This document shows positions 1,792 to 5,950 of a stretch of DNA of 45,711 nt, one piece after another (within the stretch, counting starts at the first letter, position 1; every line of letters starts with the position of its first letter). The translations under genes were made by a program, and so were the position numbers. The notes beneath the pieces were generated by a model. That model had not been told where the DNA came from and ran no database searches. It worked only from the letters and a program-made list of their open reading frames with translations. The stretch is from the NCBI GenBank assembly GCA_963977445.1, contig CAXBPH010000014.1:1-45711 (forward strand), read 5' to 3'. Source of the stretch: an uncultured bacterium (GTDB lineage: Bacteria; Hydrogenedentota; Hydrogenedentia; Hydrogenedentales; JAEUWI01).

Positions 1792-1891
1792 AGGGGTACT
1801 CCGTAGGAATGTGAAGAACAAATCGTCCTTAGCATACGGAATAGGTCCTGCCTATTTCACAAACAACGACATGCAATAACTCCAGGGAATG

Positions 1892-1923
1892 AAAAAAGGC
1901 TTTGGGGTTTGAACCCAAAGCCT
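1892..1923 (-). terminator. Intrinsic terminator downstream of rnk
   Basis: AGGCTTTGGG/CCCAAAGCCT stem with an A6 run on + (U-tract on -). Confidence 0.8.
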
Positions 1924-1961
1924 CTGCCGCAGCCCCATTGATGATTTGCCCAGCGCCTCGC

Positions 1962-2381
1962 CTACAGGTGCGTGTCGCCCGCCGCTTCGGGCTGGTAGGG
2001 AAGAGACTTCACCTGGAAGGACGTCAATCCCTTCGGGAGACGGACTTCAAAGGTGTCGCCCACCCGGTGACCCAACATGGCGGTGCCCAAGGGGGCAAGG
2101 ACGGAGATGCGGTATTGTTCCGGGTTGCCTTCTTCCGGATAGACCAGGATGCAATTCATGGGACGTCCCGTGGACAAGTTTTCCAGCTCGACCTTGGAGC
2201 GCATCGTGATGAGATCAGACGGTGTCTGGCTCGGATCTTCTACGACCGAGGCACGTTCCAACTCCTCACTCAATTCTTGAATATGTGGACGTTCACGGTG
2301 TCCTGGTTTTTCGTTAAGATCTTCCAGGCAGGACAGGAGTCGTTCCTTGTCTTTTACCGTAGTCCAAATCTGTTTTGCCAT
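1962..2381 (-). CDS. rnk: Rnk, regulator of nucleoside diphosphate kinase (GreA/GreB family)
   Basis: Short N-terminal helical hairpin, ITMRSKV, LVYP, ISVLAPLGTAMLG and the C-terminal YQPEAAGD hallmark. RBS GAGGT upstream. Confidence 0.92.
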   Translation of the reverse strand: MAKQIWTTVKDKERLLSCLEDLNEKPGHRERPHIQELSEELERASVVEDPSQTPSDLITMRSKVELENLSTGRPMNCILVYPEEGNPEQYRISVLAPLGTAMLGHRVGDTFEVRLPKGLTSFQVKSLPYQPEAAGDTHL

Positions 2382-2422
2382 TTTAATTACCTCGCGTAGT
2401 GCCTGTCTGGCACCTATTTTTT

Positions 2423-3463
2423 CTAAATGTGATAGTCGCCGGCGCTTTCCGGTTGGTAAAGCATTTCCTCAACTTGATACGTGCTCGTGCCCCGCTTCGC
2501 GCAGACTTCAAAGAGGTCCCCCAGTCGCCGGCCGAAAAGGCCCAGCCCCAGGGGATCCAAAATACAAACATTCGATTCATGGGCGTGGAGATCCCGTGGG
2601 AATACGAGGACCACCACTTGTTCTGTCCCGTCGTATACATCCCGCAGGCGCACCCGGGCATTCATGGTAACCACGTCGCCAGGAACATCCCGCGGGGCGG
2701 CCACCCGGGCTTCCGTCAACACCCGGTCCAGCGTGTCCGCGCTATCCTGCCATTCTTTTCGACCAAATACCCGGACAACCGATATCAACTCTTTCAGTCG
2801 GTCCAGGTCATACTGATTGACGCAGGTGGCCCGTTGATCCGCCAGCAGCAAGCCGGCCCCCTCATCGGCGACGGCTGCGCCGACTTTCAGGGAGCGAAAG
2901 AGCATGTCACGCATTTCCCGCGCCGACTTTGCCAGAGAATCCGCCTGGATACTGCCGGACCAATAGCCAACAAAAGCCGAAATCAATCCGTCCAGGTAGA
3001 CCACCATCTTTATCGATGAGTCGTCTTTGTGGCCCAGCTGCGTTCGGGAGCGATCAAAAAGATGCTCTACAAAATCCTCATATTTTTTATGAAGCTTGTT
3101 GACCCGCGGTCCCAATTGGGATGGTTGGGGCTCAATACCCAGATAACTCGGAAAGCAGAAGGGCTGAAAAAACAGCCGATCGTGATTGTGGTTATACAAA
3201 CGGAGGCGGATAACATCAAGAACAGCCTCTTCCGGATTTGTTCCCTTTACAAAGGTATGAAGGCGATCCAAAACGGCCTCACCAATGCGTTCCGCCACCT
3301 GGGCATAGAGGTCTTCTTTGCCTTGAAAGGTGTTGTATAAGGTGCCGACCGATACGCCCGCTTCCCGGGCCACGGCCTCCATCGTCGTTTGACCGAAGCC
3401 TTTGGCGTGGAACAGATGCTCGGCGGCATCCAATATCTCATTAATACGTTTACGTTGGGTCAT
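2423..3463 (-). CDS. TetR-family regulator fused to a complete C-terminal Rnk (Gre-family) domain
   Basis: TetR HTH ILDAAEHLFHAKGF..TTMEAVAREAGVSVGTLY..F.GKEDL, a helical ligand domain, then VVTMNARV...LVFP...ILDPLGLGLFG...YQPESAGD. The start may be 3463 or 3532. Confidence 0.9.
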   Translation of the reverse strand: MTQRKRINEILDAAEHLFHAKGFGQTTMEAVAREAGVSVGTLYNTFQGKEDLYAQVAERIGEAVLDRLHTFVKGTNPEEAVLDVIRLRLYNHNHDRLFFQPFCFPSYLGIEPQPSQLGPRVNKLHKKYEDFVEHLFDRSRTQLGHKDDSSIKMVVYLDGLISAFVGYWSGSIQADSLAKSAREMRDMLFRSLKVGAAVADEGAGLLLADQRATCVNQYDLDRLKELISVVRVFGRKEWQDSADTLDRVLTEARVAAPRDVPGDVVTMNARVRLRDVYDGTEQVVVLVFPRDLHAHESNVCILDPLGLGLFGRRLGDLFEVCAKRGTSTYQVEEMLYQPESAGDYHI

Positions 3464-3516
3464 CGTGGTGTGTGCCGTGCCGGTCACCCGAACGCCGCAC
3501 CGCGCCACATAGCAAA

Positions 3517-3550
3517 ATGAGTTGGCGTTCATAAAGTGAATGTGTCTTCA
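3517..3550. promoter_or_regulatory. Two tandem palindromic operator-like boxes (TGA[AG]-N6-TTCA)
   Basis: TGAATGTGTCTTCA (3537-3550) and ATGAGTTGGCGTTCAT (3517-3532), 19 bp apart and covering the predicted transcription start. Confidence 0.6.
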
Positions 3551-3578
3551 TTCTAGCCCGAAATGGAGCAATTGTCAA
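3550..3578 (-). promoter_or_regulatory. sigma70-type promoter for the TetR-Rnk/rnk operon
   Basis: TTGACA-17 nt-TAGAAT on the minus strand. Confidence 0.8.
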
Positions 3579-3750
3579 GTCAGTCGGGGGCGTTGAGGAG
3601 CAGCGGACCGGCCCCCGGCCAACGGCGTGGATTCCCGGTCCGCGCTTACGTAGAATAACGGGTCTGACCAATAACCCCTATCGCAGCAACGACGCCCCCC
3701 CGGAGTGACTGGGGGAGTCGGGCGTCCACGCGCAATGAAAGGTATTTTTC

Positions 3751-5670
3751 ATGCAACGACTTTCTCTGGTGGCCCTGGCTGGACTCTTTGCCAGCACCGC
3801 CTTCACCCTGCCCCTGTCGGAAGACTCAAAATTGACCCGGTTGCCCTTCAACAACCCCGGTCTCGTGGTTGATTTGGGCGTGGGCCTCTGGGCGTCGCCC
3901 ATGCCGGTGGATTACGATGGCGACGGGGACTACGACCTGCTCTGTGCCACCGCCGATAAGCCCTACAACGGCATTTATTTCTTCGAGAATGCCACGGGGA
4001 ACGTGGACTGGCCCGTGTTCAAACCCGCCGTGCGCCTCTCCGATGTAAAGCATAACGCCATGATCTCCTACGAAGGGGATCAGTGGTTTGTCACCGAGCC
4101 AGGCAAAATCTTTCCCAACTTCACCACAACCTTCTTCACCGAAGGGGTGGATATACCCTACGAGCCGACCTTCAAAGCCACCCGGGCCAAGCAATGGAAA
4201 TTCGTCGACTATGATGGTGACGGCGTGCGCGACCTCATCGTCGGAGCCAGTGACTGGACCGACTACGGCTGGGACAATGCCTTCAACGAACAGGGTGTAT
4301 GGACCAACGACGTTATTCATGGCCACATATATGTCATGCGCAATACGGGCACCAACGAAGCCCCCGTCTATGCCGAAGCCCTGCAGATAAAGGCGGGCGA
4401 CGGGCCGTTGGATGTTTATGGCTGCCCTTCCCCGAATTTTGTCGACATCGATAAAGACGGCGACCTCGATATTATCGCCGGTGAATTTCTAGACCGTCTG
4501 TCCTACTTCGAAAACGAAGGCACCCGTACGGAGCCCAAATACACAGCGCGCCGCTTCATTCAGCACAACGGCGAAACCCTGCACCTCGACCTCCAGATGT
4601 TGCAGGTCGTGGTTTTCGACTGGAACCGCGATGGCAACCCCGATATCTTTGTCGGTAAAGAAGATGGCCGCGTCGTGCTCATGCTGGGTACGGGTAAATT
4701 CAGCGACGGCGTTCCCGGATTTACGCCACCCCGTTACCTGCAGCAGGAAGCCGACTCGGTAAAGGTCGGTGCCCTTACCACCCCCGACAGCATTGACTGG
4801 GATGGCGATGGCGACGAAGACATCATCGCTGGTGACACGGCAGGCTACATCAGTTTTGTGGAAAACCTTGGTGGCGGTGCGACCCCAAGCTGGGCCAAGC
4901 CGGTCTACCTCACCGCCAACGGCGCACCCATCCGTATTCTCGCTGGACCCAACGGTTCCATCCAGGGACCCGCCGAGGCCAAGTGGGGTTACACCGTCCT
5001 GAATGTCGCCGATTGGGATATGGACGGCCTGCCCGATGTGATCATCAATTCCATCTGGGGTAAGGTCGAGTGGTATAAGAATATCGGCGAAGCCGGTAAG
5101 CCTCAGCTGGCCCCGGCCCAGCCCGTCGACGTGGCCTGGACGGGTGACACCCCCAAGCCCGCCTGGTTCTGGTGGAGCCCCGAAGGCAAAGAACTCGTCA
5201 CCCAGTGGCGGACCAGCCCGGTTGTTCAGGATCTCAATGGCGATGGCCTCAACGACCTCATCATGCTCGACCAGGAAGGCTATTTGTCCTTCTTCGAGCG
5301 CAGTAAAGACGGCGACACCCTGGTGCTCAATCCGCCCAAGCGCATCTTTATGAACGAAAAGGGAGAGGCCCTTCAGCTGAACGATAAAATCGGCGGTGGC
5401 AGTGGTCGGCGTAAATTTGTCCTCTATGATTGGGATCAGGACGGCAAACTCGACCTGCTCATCAACAGCAAGAACATCGACTTCATGCGCAATATCGCCG
5501 AGAAGCCCGGCGAATACAAGTTTAAGAACGAAGGCCTTGTTGACCCCCATATGCTTGCAGGCCACACGACGTGCCCCGCGATCGTCGATTGGGATGGCAA
5601 TGGCGTTGGTGACTTGCTCATCGGTGCAGAAGATGGATTCTTTTATCACCTGACCAACCCCAATCAATAG
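3751..5670 (+). CDS. Secreted FG-GAP/VCBS repeat beta-propeller protein
   Basis: Signal peptide plus about 9 DxDGDGxxD Ca-binding repeats (DYDGDGDYD, DWDGDGDED, DLNGDGLND and others). RBS GAAAGG. Confidence 0.85.
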   Translation: MQRLSLVALAGLFASTAFTLPLSEDSKLTRLPFNNPGLVVDLGVGLWASPMPVDYDGDGDYDLLCATADKPYNGIYFFENATGNVDWPVFKPAVRLSDVKHNAMISYEGDQWFVTEPGKIFPNFTTTFFTEGVDIPYEPTFKATRAKQWKFVDYDGDGVRDLIVGASDWTDYGWDNAFNEQGVWTNDVIHGHIYVMRNTGTNEAPVYAEALQIKAGDGPLDVYGCPSPNFVDIDKDGDLDIIAGEFLDRLSYFENEGTRTEPKYTARRFIQHNGETLHLDLQMLQVVVFDWNRDGNPDIFVGKEDGRVVLMLGTGKFSDGVPGFTPPRYLQQEADSVKVGALTTPDSIDWDGDGDEDIIAGDTAGYISFVENLGGGATPSWAKPVYLTANGAPIRILAGPNGSIQGPAEAKWGYTVLNVADWDMDGLPDVIINSIWGKVEWYKNIGEAGKPQLAPAQPVDVAWTGDTPKPAWFWWSPEGKELVTQWRTSPVVQDLNGDGLNDLIMLDQEGYLSFFERSKDGDTLVLNPPKRIFMNEKGEALQLNDKIGGGSGRRKFVLYDWDQDGKLDLLINSKNIDFMRNIAEKPGEYKFKNEGLVDPHMLAGHTTCPAIVDWDGNGVGDLLIGAEDGFFYHLTNPNQ

Positions 5671-5858: not shown

Positions 5859-5950
<92 letters not shown>

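Follow-up and report, generated by a model that had tools for sequence, protein, structure and literature searches.

Background

Why should a bacterial repressor carry, in the same polypeptide chain, a domain of the kind that binds RNA polymerase at its secondary channel? This question is raised by a locus on a 45,711-nucleotide contig (CAXBPH010000014.1, assembly GCA_963977445.1) of an uncultured member of the Hydrogenedentota, referred to here as the window, i.e. the whole stretch of DNA that was analysed. On its minus strand a gene for a TetR-type regulator fused to a full-length Rnk domain is followed by a gene for a stand-alone Rnk. From the comparison of orthologous promoters we consider it very probable that the FadR-like TetR half of the fusion binds two palindromes and thereby shuts the near-consensus sigma-70-type promoter of both genes. 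The role of the fused Rnk domain is addressed more tentatively.

Secondary-channel factors (GreA/B, DksA, TraR, Gfh1 and Rnk) are usually treated as free, global modulators. As described in PMC4598747, the Escherichia coli Rnk protein has a short coiled coil that cannot reach the active site, binds polymerase tightly and displaces Gre factors from it in vitro; the same account presents as an open question which factor occupies the secondary channel, and how cells decide. The Rnk proteins described there are free, about 136 amino acids (aa) long, and appear in that account with neither a DNA-binding part nor a regulator, whereas here one copy is joined to a repressor. The source genome of the window comprises 7.1 Mb in 464 contigs and is 94% complete, and all genomes compared in this work are uncultured metagenome-assembled genomes (MAGs).

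The fusion gene, its product and the adjoining rnk

A sequence-only reading of the locus had proposed that one uninterrupted open reading frame (ORF) joins a full TetR protein to a complete Rnk domain, that a second, divergent Rnk stands alone 41 bp further on, and that the pair has its own promoter and terminator. All three proposals were borne out. The ORF occupies positions 2423..3532 of the minus strand and encodes 369 aa without interruption, and Pfam, NCBIfam, PDB, AF2 and Foldseek agree on its make-up of TetR, linker and Rnk. Since close homologues are mostly 345-346 aa long and their first residue aligns with the ATG at 3463, the gene likely starts there and encodes 346 aa plus stop (MTQRKR...; 2423..3463). 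The in-frame ATG at 3532 is probably unused, because it abuts operator 2 (see below) and the extension is not conserved. The protein ends in ...LYQPESAGDYHI (YQPESAGDYHI).

In the 369-aa numbering, Pfam placed TetR_N (PF00440) at residues 33-78 (62.5 bits against a cut-off of 24, profile positions 1-46 of 47) and the GreA_GreB C-terminal domain (PF01272) at residues 284-356 (40.8 bits against 26.9), and residues 235-368 matched positions 6-136 of 137 of the NCBIfam Rnk model PRK05753 (NF004396) with 84.7 bits. On the minus strand of the window the TetR-type helix-turn-helix, recognized by Pfam and in the homologue alignment, corresponds to 3299..3436. It is followed by an all-helical, FadR-like regulatory (ligand/dimerisation) domain at 2876..3298, recognized from the AF2 model, Foldseek and phmmer, by a disordered linker at 2834..2875 (residues 197-210, about 14 aa, pLDDT below 50) and by the full-length Rnk domain at 2426..2833, which consists of a short coiled coil and a Gre-type C-terminal domain and was identified by its match to PDB 3bmb, NCBIfam and Foldseek. 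Two hallmarks of the TetR/AcrR family, the N-terminal helix-turn-helix and the all-helical regulatory domain, are thus found in the fusion, and its TetR half is presumably a dimer.

The AF2 model, built on an alignment of 51 sequences, reached a mean pLDDT of 86.7 and a pTM of 0.54. It contains ten helices in the TetR body (residues 2-197), predicted with high confidence, where about nine in all are typical of the family, and a confident Rnk body at residues 211-346 made of a beta-rich domain and two short helices (217-233 and 236-251), which Foldseek superposed on 3bmb. The low pTM despite the high mean pLDDT suggests that the Rnk domain has no fixed packing against the TetR core. In the 51 homologues the stretch that includes the linker (residues 189-211, reference numbering) is 16-30 residues long, with a median of 21, rich in A, G, E, P and S and not conserved in sequence. 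Both halves are conserved from end to end, with 20 invariant columns in the homologue alignment and a recognition helix in which S38 V39 G40 .. Y43 N44 are nearly invariant.

Foldseek ranked the Rnk structures 2pn0 and 3bmb first, followed by TetR proteins led by the acyl-CoA-binding FadR and the nucleotide-binding DarR, and it aligned 185-205 columns of the TetR body with many solved TetR proteins. Residues 216-344 of the fusion match chain residues 9-134 of 136 of E. coli Rnk (PDB 3BMB; E 5.5e-18, TM 0.82), and the fused domain reaches a TM of 0.85 with the Rnk homologue of Nitrosomonas europaea (PDB 2PN0). It shares with E. coli Rnk the short two-helix coiled coil, the Gre-type C-terminal domain and a tail of the YQPEAAGDY type. 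With the fusion as query, the ESM Atlas yielded nothing but generic TetR clusters, whose value of 0.88 falls short of the lead level of 0.9.

A spacer of 41 bp (2382..2422) separates the stop codon of the fusion gene (2423-2425) from the next ATG at 2381; it contains GAGG at 2390-2393, 8 nt ahead of that ATG, and the terminator scan found no terminator-like site on its minus strand. The stand-alone rnk occupies 1962..2381 on the minus strand and encodes 139 aa. It was assigned by Pfam (Rnk_N, PF14760, 25.8 bits against a cut-off of 23.7; GreA_GreB, PF01272, 73.3 bits against 26.9), by the NCBIfam Rnk model NF004396 and by the tree described below, and its product is 34% identical to the fused Rnk domain over 112 aa. 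The long Gre coiled coil (PF03449) was not matched by either protein in Pfam, so that neither is a cleavage factor of the GreA/GreB type. Downstream of rnk, at 1885..1925 on the minus strand, the terminator scan detected an intrinsic-terminator-like hairpin with a 12-bp stem and a 7-nt loop, followed by UUUUUUCAUU. The promoter and terminator calls at the locus are consensus matches only, with 2 promoter-like sites in the region against 1.2 expected from shuffled sequences and 5 terminator-like sites against 2.4 expected.

Distribution of the fusion

In a word-indexed protein search, 79 clusters (counted at 90% identity) matched the fusion at 34-100% identity, nearly all of them over the full length, and 76 of the 79 carried both Pfam marks; PF14760 is annotated in many of the homologues in the precomputed domain column. 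Where sources were named, they were mostly Hydrogenedentota (older name Hydrogenedentes). An exhaustive search of 1.84 billion representatives at 50% identity gave at least 28 proteins, among the 150 representatives listed, whose match extends over the two halves without a break, with identities as low as 25%. Full-length fusions were present in 33 of the 135 Hydrogenedentota genomes, belonging to six of 15 families, two genomes having two copies. A second phylum, with records titled Planctomycetota or Phycisphaerae, had them in 4 of 401 sampled genomes, and these copies belong to a more distant branch at 35% identity. When the fused Rnk domain was used to search for longer proteins containing it, only TetR fusions were returned (25/25).

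The sequence-only reading had allowed that the fusion might be unique to this assembly, because a stop was lost or the sequence is chimeric; a frameshift would be another artefact of this kind. The one point in favour of an artefact is that the window lies in a fragmented draft genome of 464 contigs. The distribution described above refutes it: the same uninterrupted architecture recurs in the 79 clusters, in the 33 Hydrogenedentota genomes and in the four genomes of the second phylum, and both halves align from end to end. For the continuity of the DNA around 2830-2890, which that reading had wished to see checked, there is weak support from two public DNA runs: a pair of short contigs assembled from them spans the linker DNA (2834-2875) at 95-99% identity and with no gap, but the runs may be related to the source sample. 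Only two DNA runs with small shares, and no RNA run, were listed for the sequence. An artefact of assembly or annotation thus has next to no probability left, and the fused state appears to be kept in two phyla under purifying selection on both halves.

Three of the fusion-bearing MAGs (L010, L014 and L015) are labelled 'uncultured Nitrospiraceae'. This label looks wrong, because L015 (= G082), at least, was placed in the order of the window itself.

Promoter and operators

Upstream of the fusion gene, on the minus strand, a consensus scan found a -35 hexamer TTGACA at 3573..3578 and, after 17 nt, a -10 hexamer TAGAAT at 3550..3555, which together match the consensus at 11 of 12 positions. When the upstream DNA of orthologous loci was aligned, the invariant columns clustered at the -35 box, at the -10 box and at two short palindromes. 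The first, predicted operator 1 (TGAAGACACATTCA, 3537..3550, minus strand), is of the TGAAT-N4-ATTCA type with 1 mismatch, and its first base is the last T of the -10 box. The second, predicted operator 2 (TGAACGCCAACTCA, 3518..3531, minus strand), has 2 mismatches and starts 19 bp past operator 1. If transcription starts 7 nt past the -10 box, operator 1 would cover about -7 to +7 and operator 2 about +13 to +26.

The same promoter design was found in all 17 Hydrogenedentota loci compared (the window and 16 others): TTGACn-17-TAnAA/TGAAT-N4-ATTCA, where the slash marks the upstream edge of operator 1, with a second palindrome 18-19 bp further on. The overlap of the -10 box and operator 1 by one base is common to the 17 promoters and to two loci of the second phylum, L074 and L075, which at 35% protein identity carry a single perfect site in the same place (TTGACG...TAGAC/TGAATATAGATTCA). 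In the two other loci of that phylum, L084 and L085, a TGAG..CTCA variant occupies the same promoter position.

The operators emerged only by this comparison of orthologous promoters, and a generic inverted-repeat search of 3440-3760 missed them. The only pair returned by that search was a perfect 9-nt inverted repeat, GCGGACCGG/CCGGTCCGC, at 3603-3611 and 3635-3643, with 23 nt between its arms. This repeat is situated between the two divergent genes, upstream of the -35 box, and its sequence is partly conserved in L004 and L005.

With up to 3 mismatches allowed and a spacing of 17-21 bp, the paired operator occurs exactly once in the 7.1-Mb genome, in the promoter of the operon itself, and no other composite -10/operator promoter of comparable quality was found in that genome. 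At 20 loci with unlinked Rnk genes there was neither a site pair nor a site with fewer than 2 mismatches, and most sites with at most 1 mismatch in the fusion loci lie at the fusion promoters. Two sets of candidates for a wider regulon were rejected: four perfect single palindromes elsewhere in the genome (on contigs C37, C101, C175 and C267), which are about the number expected by chance for 10 specified bases in 7.1 Mb, and 15 other composite -10/operator candidates, all with weak -35 and -10 boxes and treated as chance.

Four unfused TetR relatives (L090-L093, from Lentisphaerales, Pirellulales, Sedimentisphaerales and Spirochaetota MAGs) all carry the same palindrome upstream of their own genes, at a distance of 25-120 nt from the start, and two of them adjoin efflux genes coding for outer-membrane or membrane-fusion components. 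This indicates that the palindrome belongs to the TetR half and that the operator type is older and more widespread than the fusion.

Since the operator pair occurs only once in the genome, autorepression is well supported and the regulon is apparently the operon itself. We propose, with good confidence, that the fusion occupies about -7 to +26 and in this way represses its own promoter, and the DNA-binding half would then have one evident target. The uniqueness of the composite promoter also suggests that the module controls the dosage of Rnk-type secondary-channel factors. The autoregulation put forward by the sequence-only reading thus has strong comparative support in the double palindrome over -10/+1 in the 17 Hydrogenedentota promoters and its variants in the four loci of the second phylum. 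Its further proposal, that the fusion tethers an anti-Gre domain to specific operators, does not hold as written: with a single paired operator in 7.1 Mb, any tethering would be confined to the fusion's own promoter and would not serve a set of target genes.

A conserved two-gene module and the role of the fused Rnk domain

The synteny with rnk that the sequence-only reading had wished to see examined in other genomes is extensive. A free Rnk gene lies 3' of the fusion gene on the same strand in 14 of the 15 Hydrogenedentota loci with downstream DNA and in all four loci of the second phylum. Three of the Hydrogenedentota loci with a linked free Rnk have two of them, and one locus has two fusions in tandem with one Rnk. 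No other neighbour gene was shared, as judged by Pfam, among 46 adjoining ORFs of seven more distant loci. The conserved module thus appears to be the fusion and the free Rnk and nothing else, and we infer that the two genes are co-transcribed. Taken as a whole, the explanation that we prefer, a self-contained operon of two genes, fusion and then free Rnk, with negative autoregulation and a part for the fused Rnk domain in it, is a working proposal that falls somewhat short of probable.

For the fused domain we favour, tentatively, a feedback by product mimicry through competition for the secondary channel. The TetR half would bind the two 14-bp palindromes (TGAAT-N4-ATTCA) from the last -10 base to about +26, and the bound fusion would shut the near-consensus sigma-70-type promoter of its own gene and of the cell's ordinary rnk. 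The fused Rnk domain, which is full-length, keeps the family signature residues and sits on a flexible linker (16-30 residues), would dock on the rim of the secondary channel and compete there with the free Rnk translated from the same mRNA. As long as polymerase channels are free, the fusion would be held on polymerase and the promoter would be open; once the channels are filled by free Rnk and other channel factors, the released fusion would go back to the operator and close the operon. A second input may come from a small molecule, possibly an acyl-CoA, bound in the TetR pocket. Product-mimic feedback is the best explanation that we have for the fact most in need of one, namely that the fusion occurs only in front of rnk.

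Regulators of ribosomal-protein operons prefer their cellular target and repress their own operon only when that target is saturated. The logic of such autogenous control by target mimicry would be the same here, with the difference that repression would be transcriptional and exerted through a separate DNA-binding domain; the analogy is offered as a hypothesis.

The rim of the polymerase's secondary channel is most likely still the docking site of the fused Rnk domain. The source genome encodes one GreA and two DksA/TraR-type proteins, which are likely competitors for the channel; its sole PF03449 match lies on contig C132. A complex prediction with a 241-aa fragment of beta' around the rim helices and the fused Rnk domain (residues 205-346) gave a score of 0.00, which counts neither way.

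The position of operator 2, downstream of the start in all 17 Hydrogenedentota promoters, points to the main alternative, in which the fused domain acts in cis. A repressor bound to operator 2 would block polymerase in promoter escape or elongation, and its Rnk domain would reach over the flexible linker into the channel of the blocked enzyme and exclude GreA, so that a stalled or backtracked complex is not rescued and repression is tighter than by occlusion alone. The disordered linker of 16-30 residues and the presence of a GreA in the genome are compatible with this alternative, and so are published observations: GreA is described as speeding the passage of polymerase through repressor roadblocks (PMC11014978; review PMC10310618), and in the account of PMC4598747 Gre factors aid clearance from some promoters, in addition to being displaced by Rnk. 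However, operator 1 already covers -10/+1, so that simple occlusion suffices, and only one full operator is kept in the second phylum. That the linker reaches from the operator to the channel rim is an assumption, and blocking in cis leaves unaccounted for that rnk genes are the only ones preceded by the fusion. We regard it as rather unlikely.

Likeness of the TetR half to FadR

The best TetR-type fold matches of the fusion are structures of the acyl-CoA-responsive, TetR-family FadR of Bacillus (PDB 3WHB, 5GP9, 5GPA and 5GPC), with TM values of 0.69-0.75, and DarR reached about 0.65 with the TetR body. The phmmer alignments of the fusion with FadR chains extend past the helix-turn-helix to residue ~136. 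In Bacillus halodurans FadR, as reported in PMC5397183, the DNA-contacting residues G42 and Y45 have the same spacing as the G..Y pair of the fusion's recognition helix, and the operator has half-sites of the TGAAT/ATTCA type, with two dimers bound at FadR's own promoter. The fusion scored 45.9 bits with the FadR equivalog model of NCBIfam (NF053878), whose cut-off is 200, and its TetR half is best described as FadR-like, not as a FadR orthologue. It differs from FadR in that its operators are two separate 14-bp palindromes, whereas those described for FadR are overlapping 16-bp repeats, in the lack of fatty-acid degradation genes in its operon, and in the added C-terminal Rnk domain. What appears to be new here is the rigid, promoter-embedded double operator common to the 17 Hydrogenedentota promoters. 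From the likeness to FadR, a ligand of the acyl-CoA type is a weak lead.

The same likeness bears on a simpler explanation, a plain ligand-gated operon. A ligand, perhaps an acyl-CoA, would release the TetR half from DNA, and the fused Rnk domain would be a second copy made in fixed proportion and acting globally on polymerase after the protein has left DNA, possibly as a two-headed dimer, with neither feedback nor tethering. In its favour, no part of the TetR regulatory domain is missing and its conservation is good, the TetR half resembles FadR, and the unfused relatives with the same operator adjoin efflux genes, as ordinary TetR regulators do. Yet a fusion is needless for co-expression, as the two genes already share an operon, and the explanation leaves aside both the persistence of the fused state over two phyla, with purifying selection on the two halves, and the retention of the linked free copy. 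We regard such an operon as rather unlikely.

Origin of the fused Rnk domain

A tree of 55 Rnk domains was built by maximum likelihood from every row found, namely 17 fused domains, 18 free ones linked to a fusion and 20 unlinked free ones. The fused domains form one clade with support 100/100, which suggests that the fusion arose once. The free Rnk of the window belongs to a clade of 19 (support 100/98) together with nine unlinked Rnks, seven of which come from genomes that yielded no full-length fusion; it is the ordinary Rnk of the phylum. The motifs DV[VI]TM, LV[FY]P, PLG..L.G...GD and YQPE.AGD are kept in both fused and ordinary Rnk.

A long stem of 0.9 changes per site leads to the fused clade, in which R.FG at the tip of the coiled coil (R231, F233 and G234) and further residues in helix 1 are invariant and specific to the clade. 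These features suggest another explanation, in which the fused Rnk domain has left polymerase for a new partner, whether free Rnk, another protein or the TetR core in cis, and gives the repressor a protein-sensing input. That Rnk is also found joined to a GNAT acetyltransferase, to a zinc ribbon and to itself makes it look like a reusable module and fits this possibility. The fused domains have nevertheless kept all the signature motifs of the Gre-type C-terminal domain and the YQPE.AGD tail, and the pTM of 0.54 at a mean pLDDT of 86.7 suggests no fixed packing on the TetR core. Recruitment to a new partner seems to us improbable.

Three further observations concern the history of these genes. 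A second type of linked free Rnk, in which the tail YQPE[AS]A[QR]HWTL replaces YQPEAAGDYHL, comprises eight rows of the tree on a branch of 1.41 changes per site; it was found in L009-L014, L016 and L017, just downstream of the fusion (e.g. L012:5181-5609), and only beside fusions (8/8). In a sister genus (G061), a 115-aa ORF at L073:3805-4149, 66% identical to the fused Rnk domain, falls inside the fused clade; its coiled coil is missing the first helix, no TetR part lies in the 3.8 kb upstream of it, and it is probably the remnant of a lost fusion. The unfused ancestral order, a TetR gene followed by rnk, was not found: the TetR-only relatives in two genomes of the phylum (31-32% identity) have no adjoining Rnk, nor do those in the four loci of other phyla, L090-L093.

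Points that weigh against the proposed feedback

Several points weigh against the feedback that we favour. It assumes that a polymerase-bound fusion is unable to bind DNA, and the regulatory domain of the TetR half, being intact, might by itself exert all the control that is needed and leave the fused Rnk domain without a part. With 84.7 bits the fused domain lies below the equivalog cut-off of 109 of the NCBIfam Rnk model, as does the free copy (99 bits), and the fused copy of the window has no Pfam Rnk_N (PF14760) match at E <= 0.01; both copies are best considered Rnk-like relatives below the curated orthologue threshold. The long stem and the private residues of the fused clade count here as well, as the clade may have acquired a different partner. 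One Hydrogenedentota locus, L018, has no linked free Rnk. For E. coli Rnk itself, the account in PMC4598747 records no known effect on transcription, no deletion phenotype and no known function. The transcription start, operator binding and co-transcription are predictions from sequence, as is polymerase binding by the fused domain. Finally, a second operator pair may lie in unassembled DNA, because the genome is 94% complete.

Other Rnk fusions, related proteins and neighbouring genes

Among the multi-domain matches seen, TetR is the only DNA-binding partner of Rnk, the others being GNAT, a zinc ribbon, the N-terminal domain of PntA and Rnk itself. A set of ten such proteins (P0081-P0085, P0142, P0161, P0179, P0190 and P0235) includes Rnk joined to a GNAT acetyltransferase (303-305 aa), tandem Rnk-Rnk proteins (277-294 aa) and Rnk after a zinc ribbon (215 aa). 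In P0235 (249 aa) Rnk follows the N-terminal domain of PntA, which may be an artefact of gene calling. The pntA/pntB genes for NAD(P) transhydrogenase directly adjoin the TetR-Rnk module in three distant loci (L014:215-1411, L015:5537-8500 and L018:5241-8126), and together with P0235 these neighbours point to a possible link between Rnk and pnt.

Gfh1 of Thermus and Rv3788 of Mycobacterium, Gre-like inhibitors or 'anti-Gre' factors as presented in PMC4598747, share the Gre fold, fill the secondary channel and compete with Gre factors. They differ from the proteins studied here by long coiled coils, whose acidic tips reach the active site and inhibit catalysis, and by being free and acting globally; among the fold matches of the fusion model, chains of Gfh1 have low similarity (TM ~0.45). 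Gre domains at the C-terminus of longer proteins are also known from the models PRK06330 (718 positions, 'transcript cleavage factor/unknown domain fusion protein') and PRK14720 (906 positions), both of which match the free Rnk weakly. As far as the models themselves tell, the fused part is neither TetR nor a recognised DNA-binding regulator, and the Gre part is of the cleavage-factor type.

Two genes flank the module in the window. A divergent gene at 3751-5670 on the plus strand encodes an FG-GAP/VCBS-repeat protein of 639 aa, and a gene at 175-1821 on the minus strand encodes a 548-aa protein with two glycerophosphodiester-phosphodiesterase (GDPD) domains. Both adjoin the module only in genus-level relatives (L004-L008) and were therefore ruled out as parts of it. 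A tRNA-Ser gene (anticodon CGA) at 5859-5949 on the plus strand is the sole tRNA detected by ARAGORN and the sole Rfam match at gathering score in the 45.7-kb window.

Conclusions

Both halves of the fusion have known folds, and their joined architecture is conserved and unstudied. In agreement with the sequence-only reading, to which it seemed uncharacterised, we found no description of the TetR-Rnk architecture among the papers listed by full-text searches, a coverage that leaves out subscription journals and InterPro. If the fused domain is inert, the finding shrinks to a lineage-specific variant of TetR. In any case the module offers a natural and testable handle on the role of Rnk, as it combines an Rnk domain covalently attached to an autoregulating repressor with a free Rnk, and the compact 14-bp operator with its strong promoter, in a fixed geometry conserved in two phyla, may serve as building blocks in synthetic biology. 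A sequence-specific DNA-binding repressor equipped with a secondary-channel factor of its own, be it as a homeostat of channel occupancy or as a plug against GreA rescue, is a possibility that we hold with caution, and it would be the first natural case. If either is true, secondary-channel factors would act locally and under dedicated control, and Rnk, whose structure dates from 2008 and which has had no known function since, would be given its place in a defined regulatory circuit.

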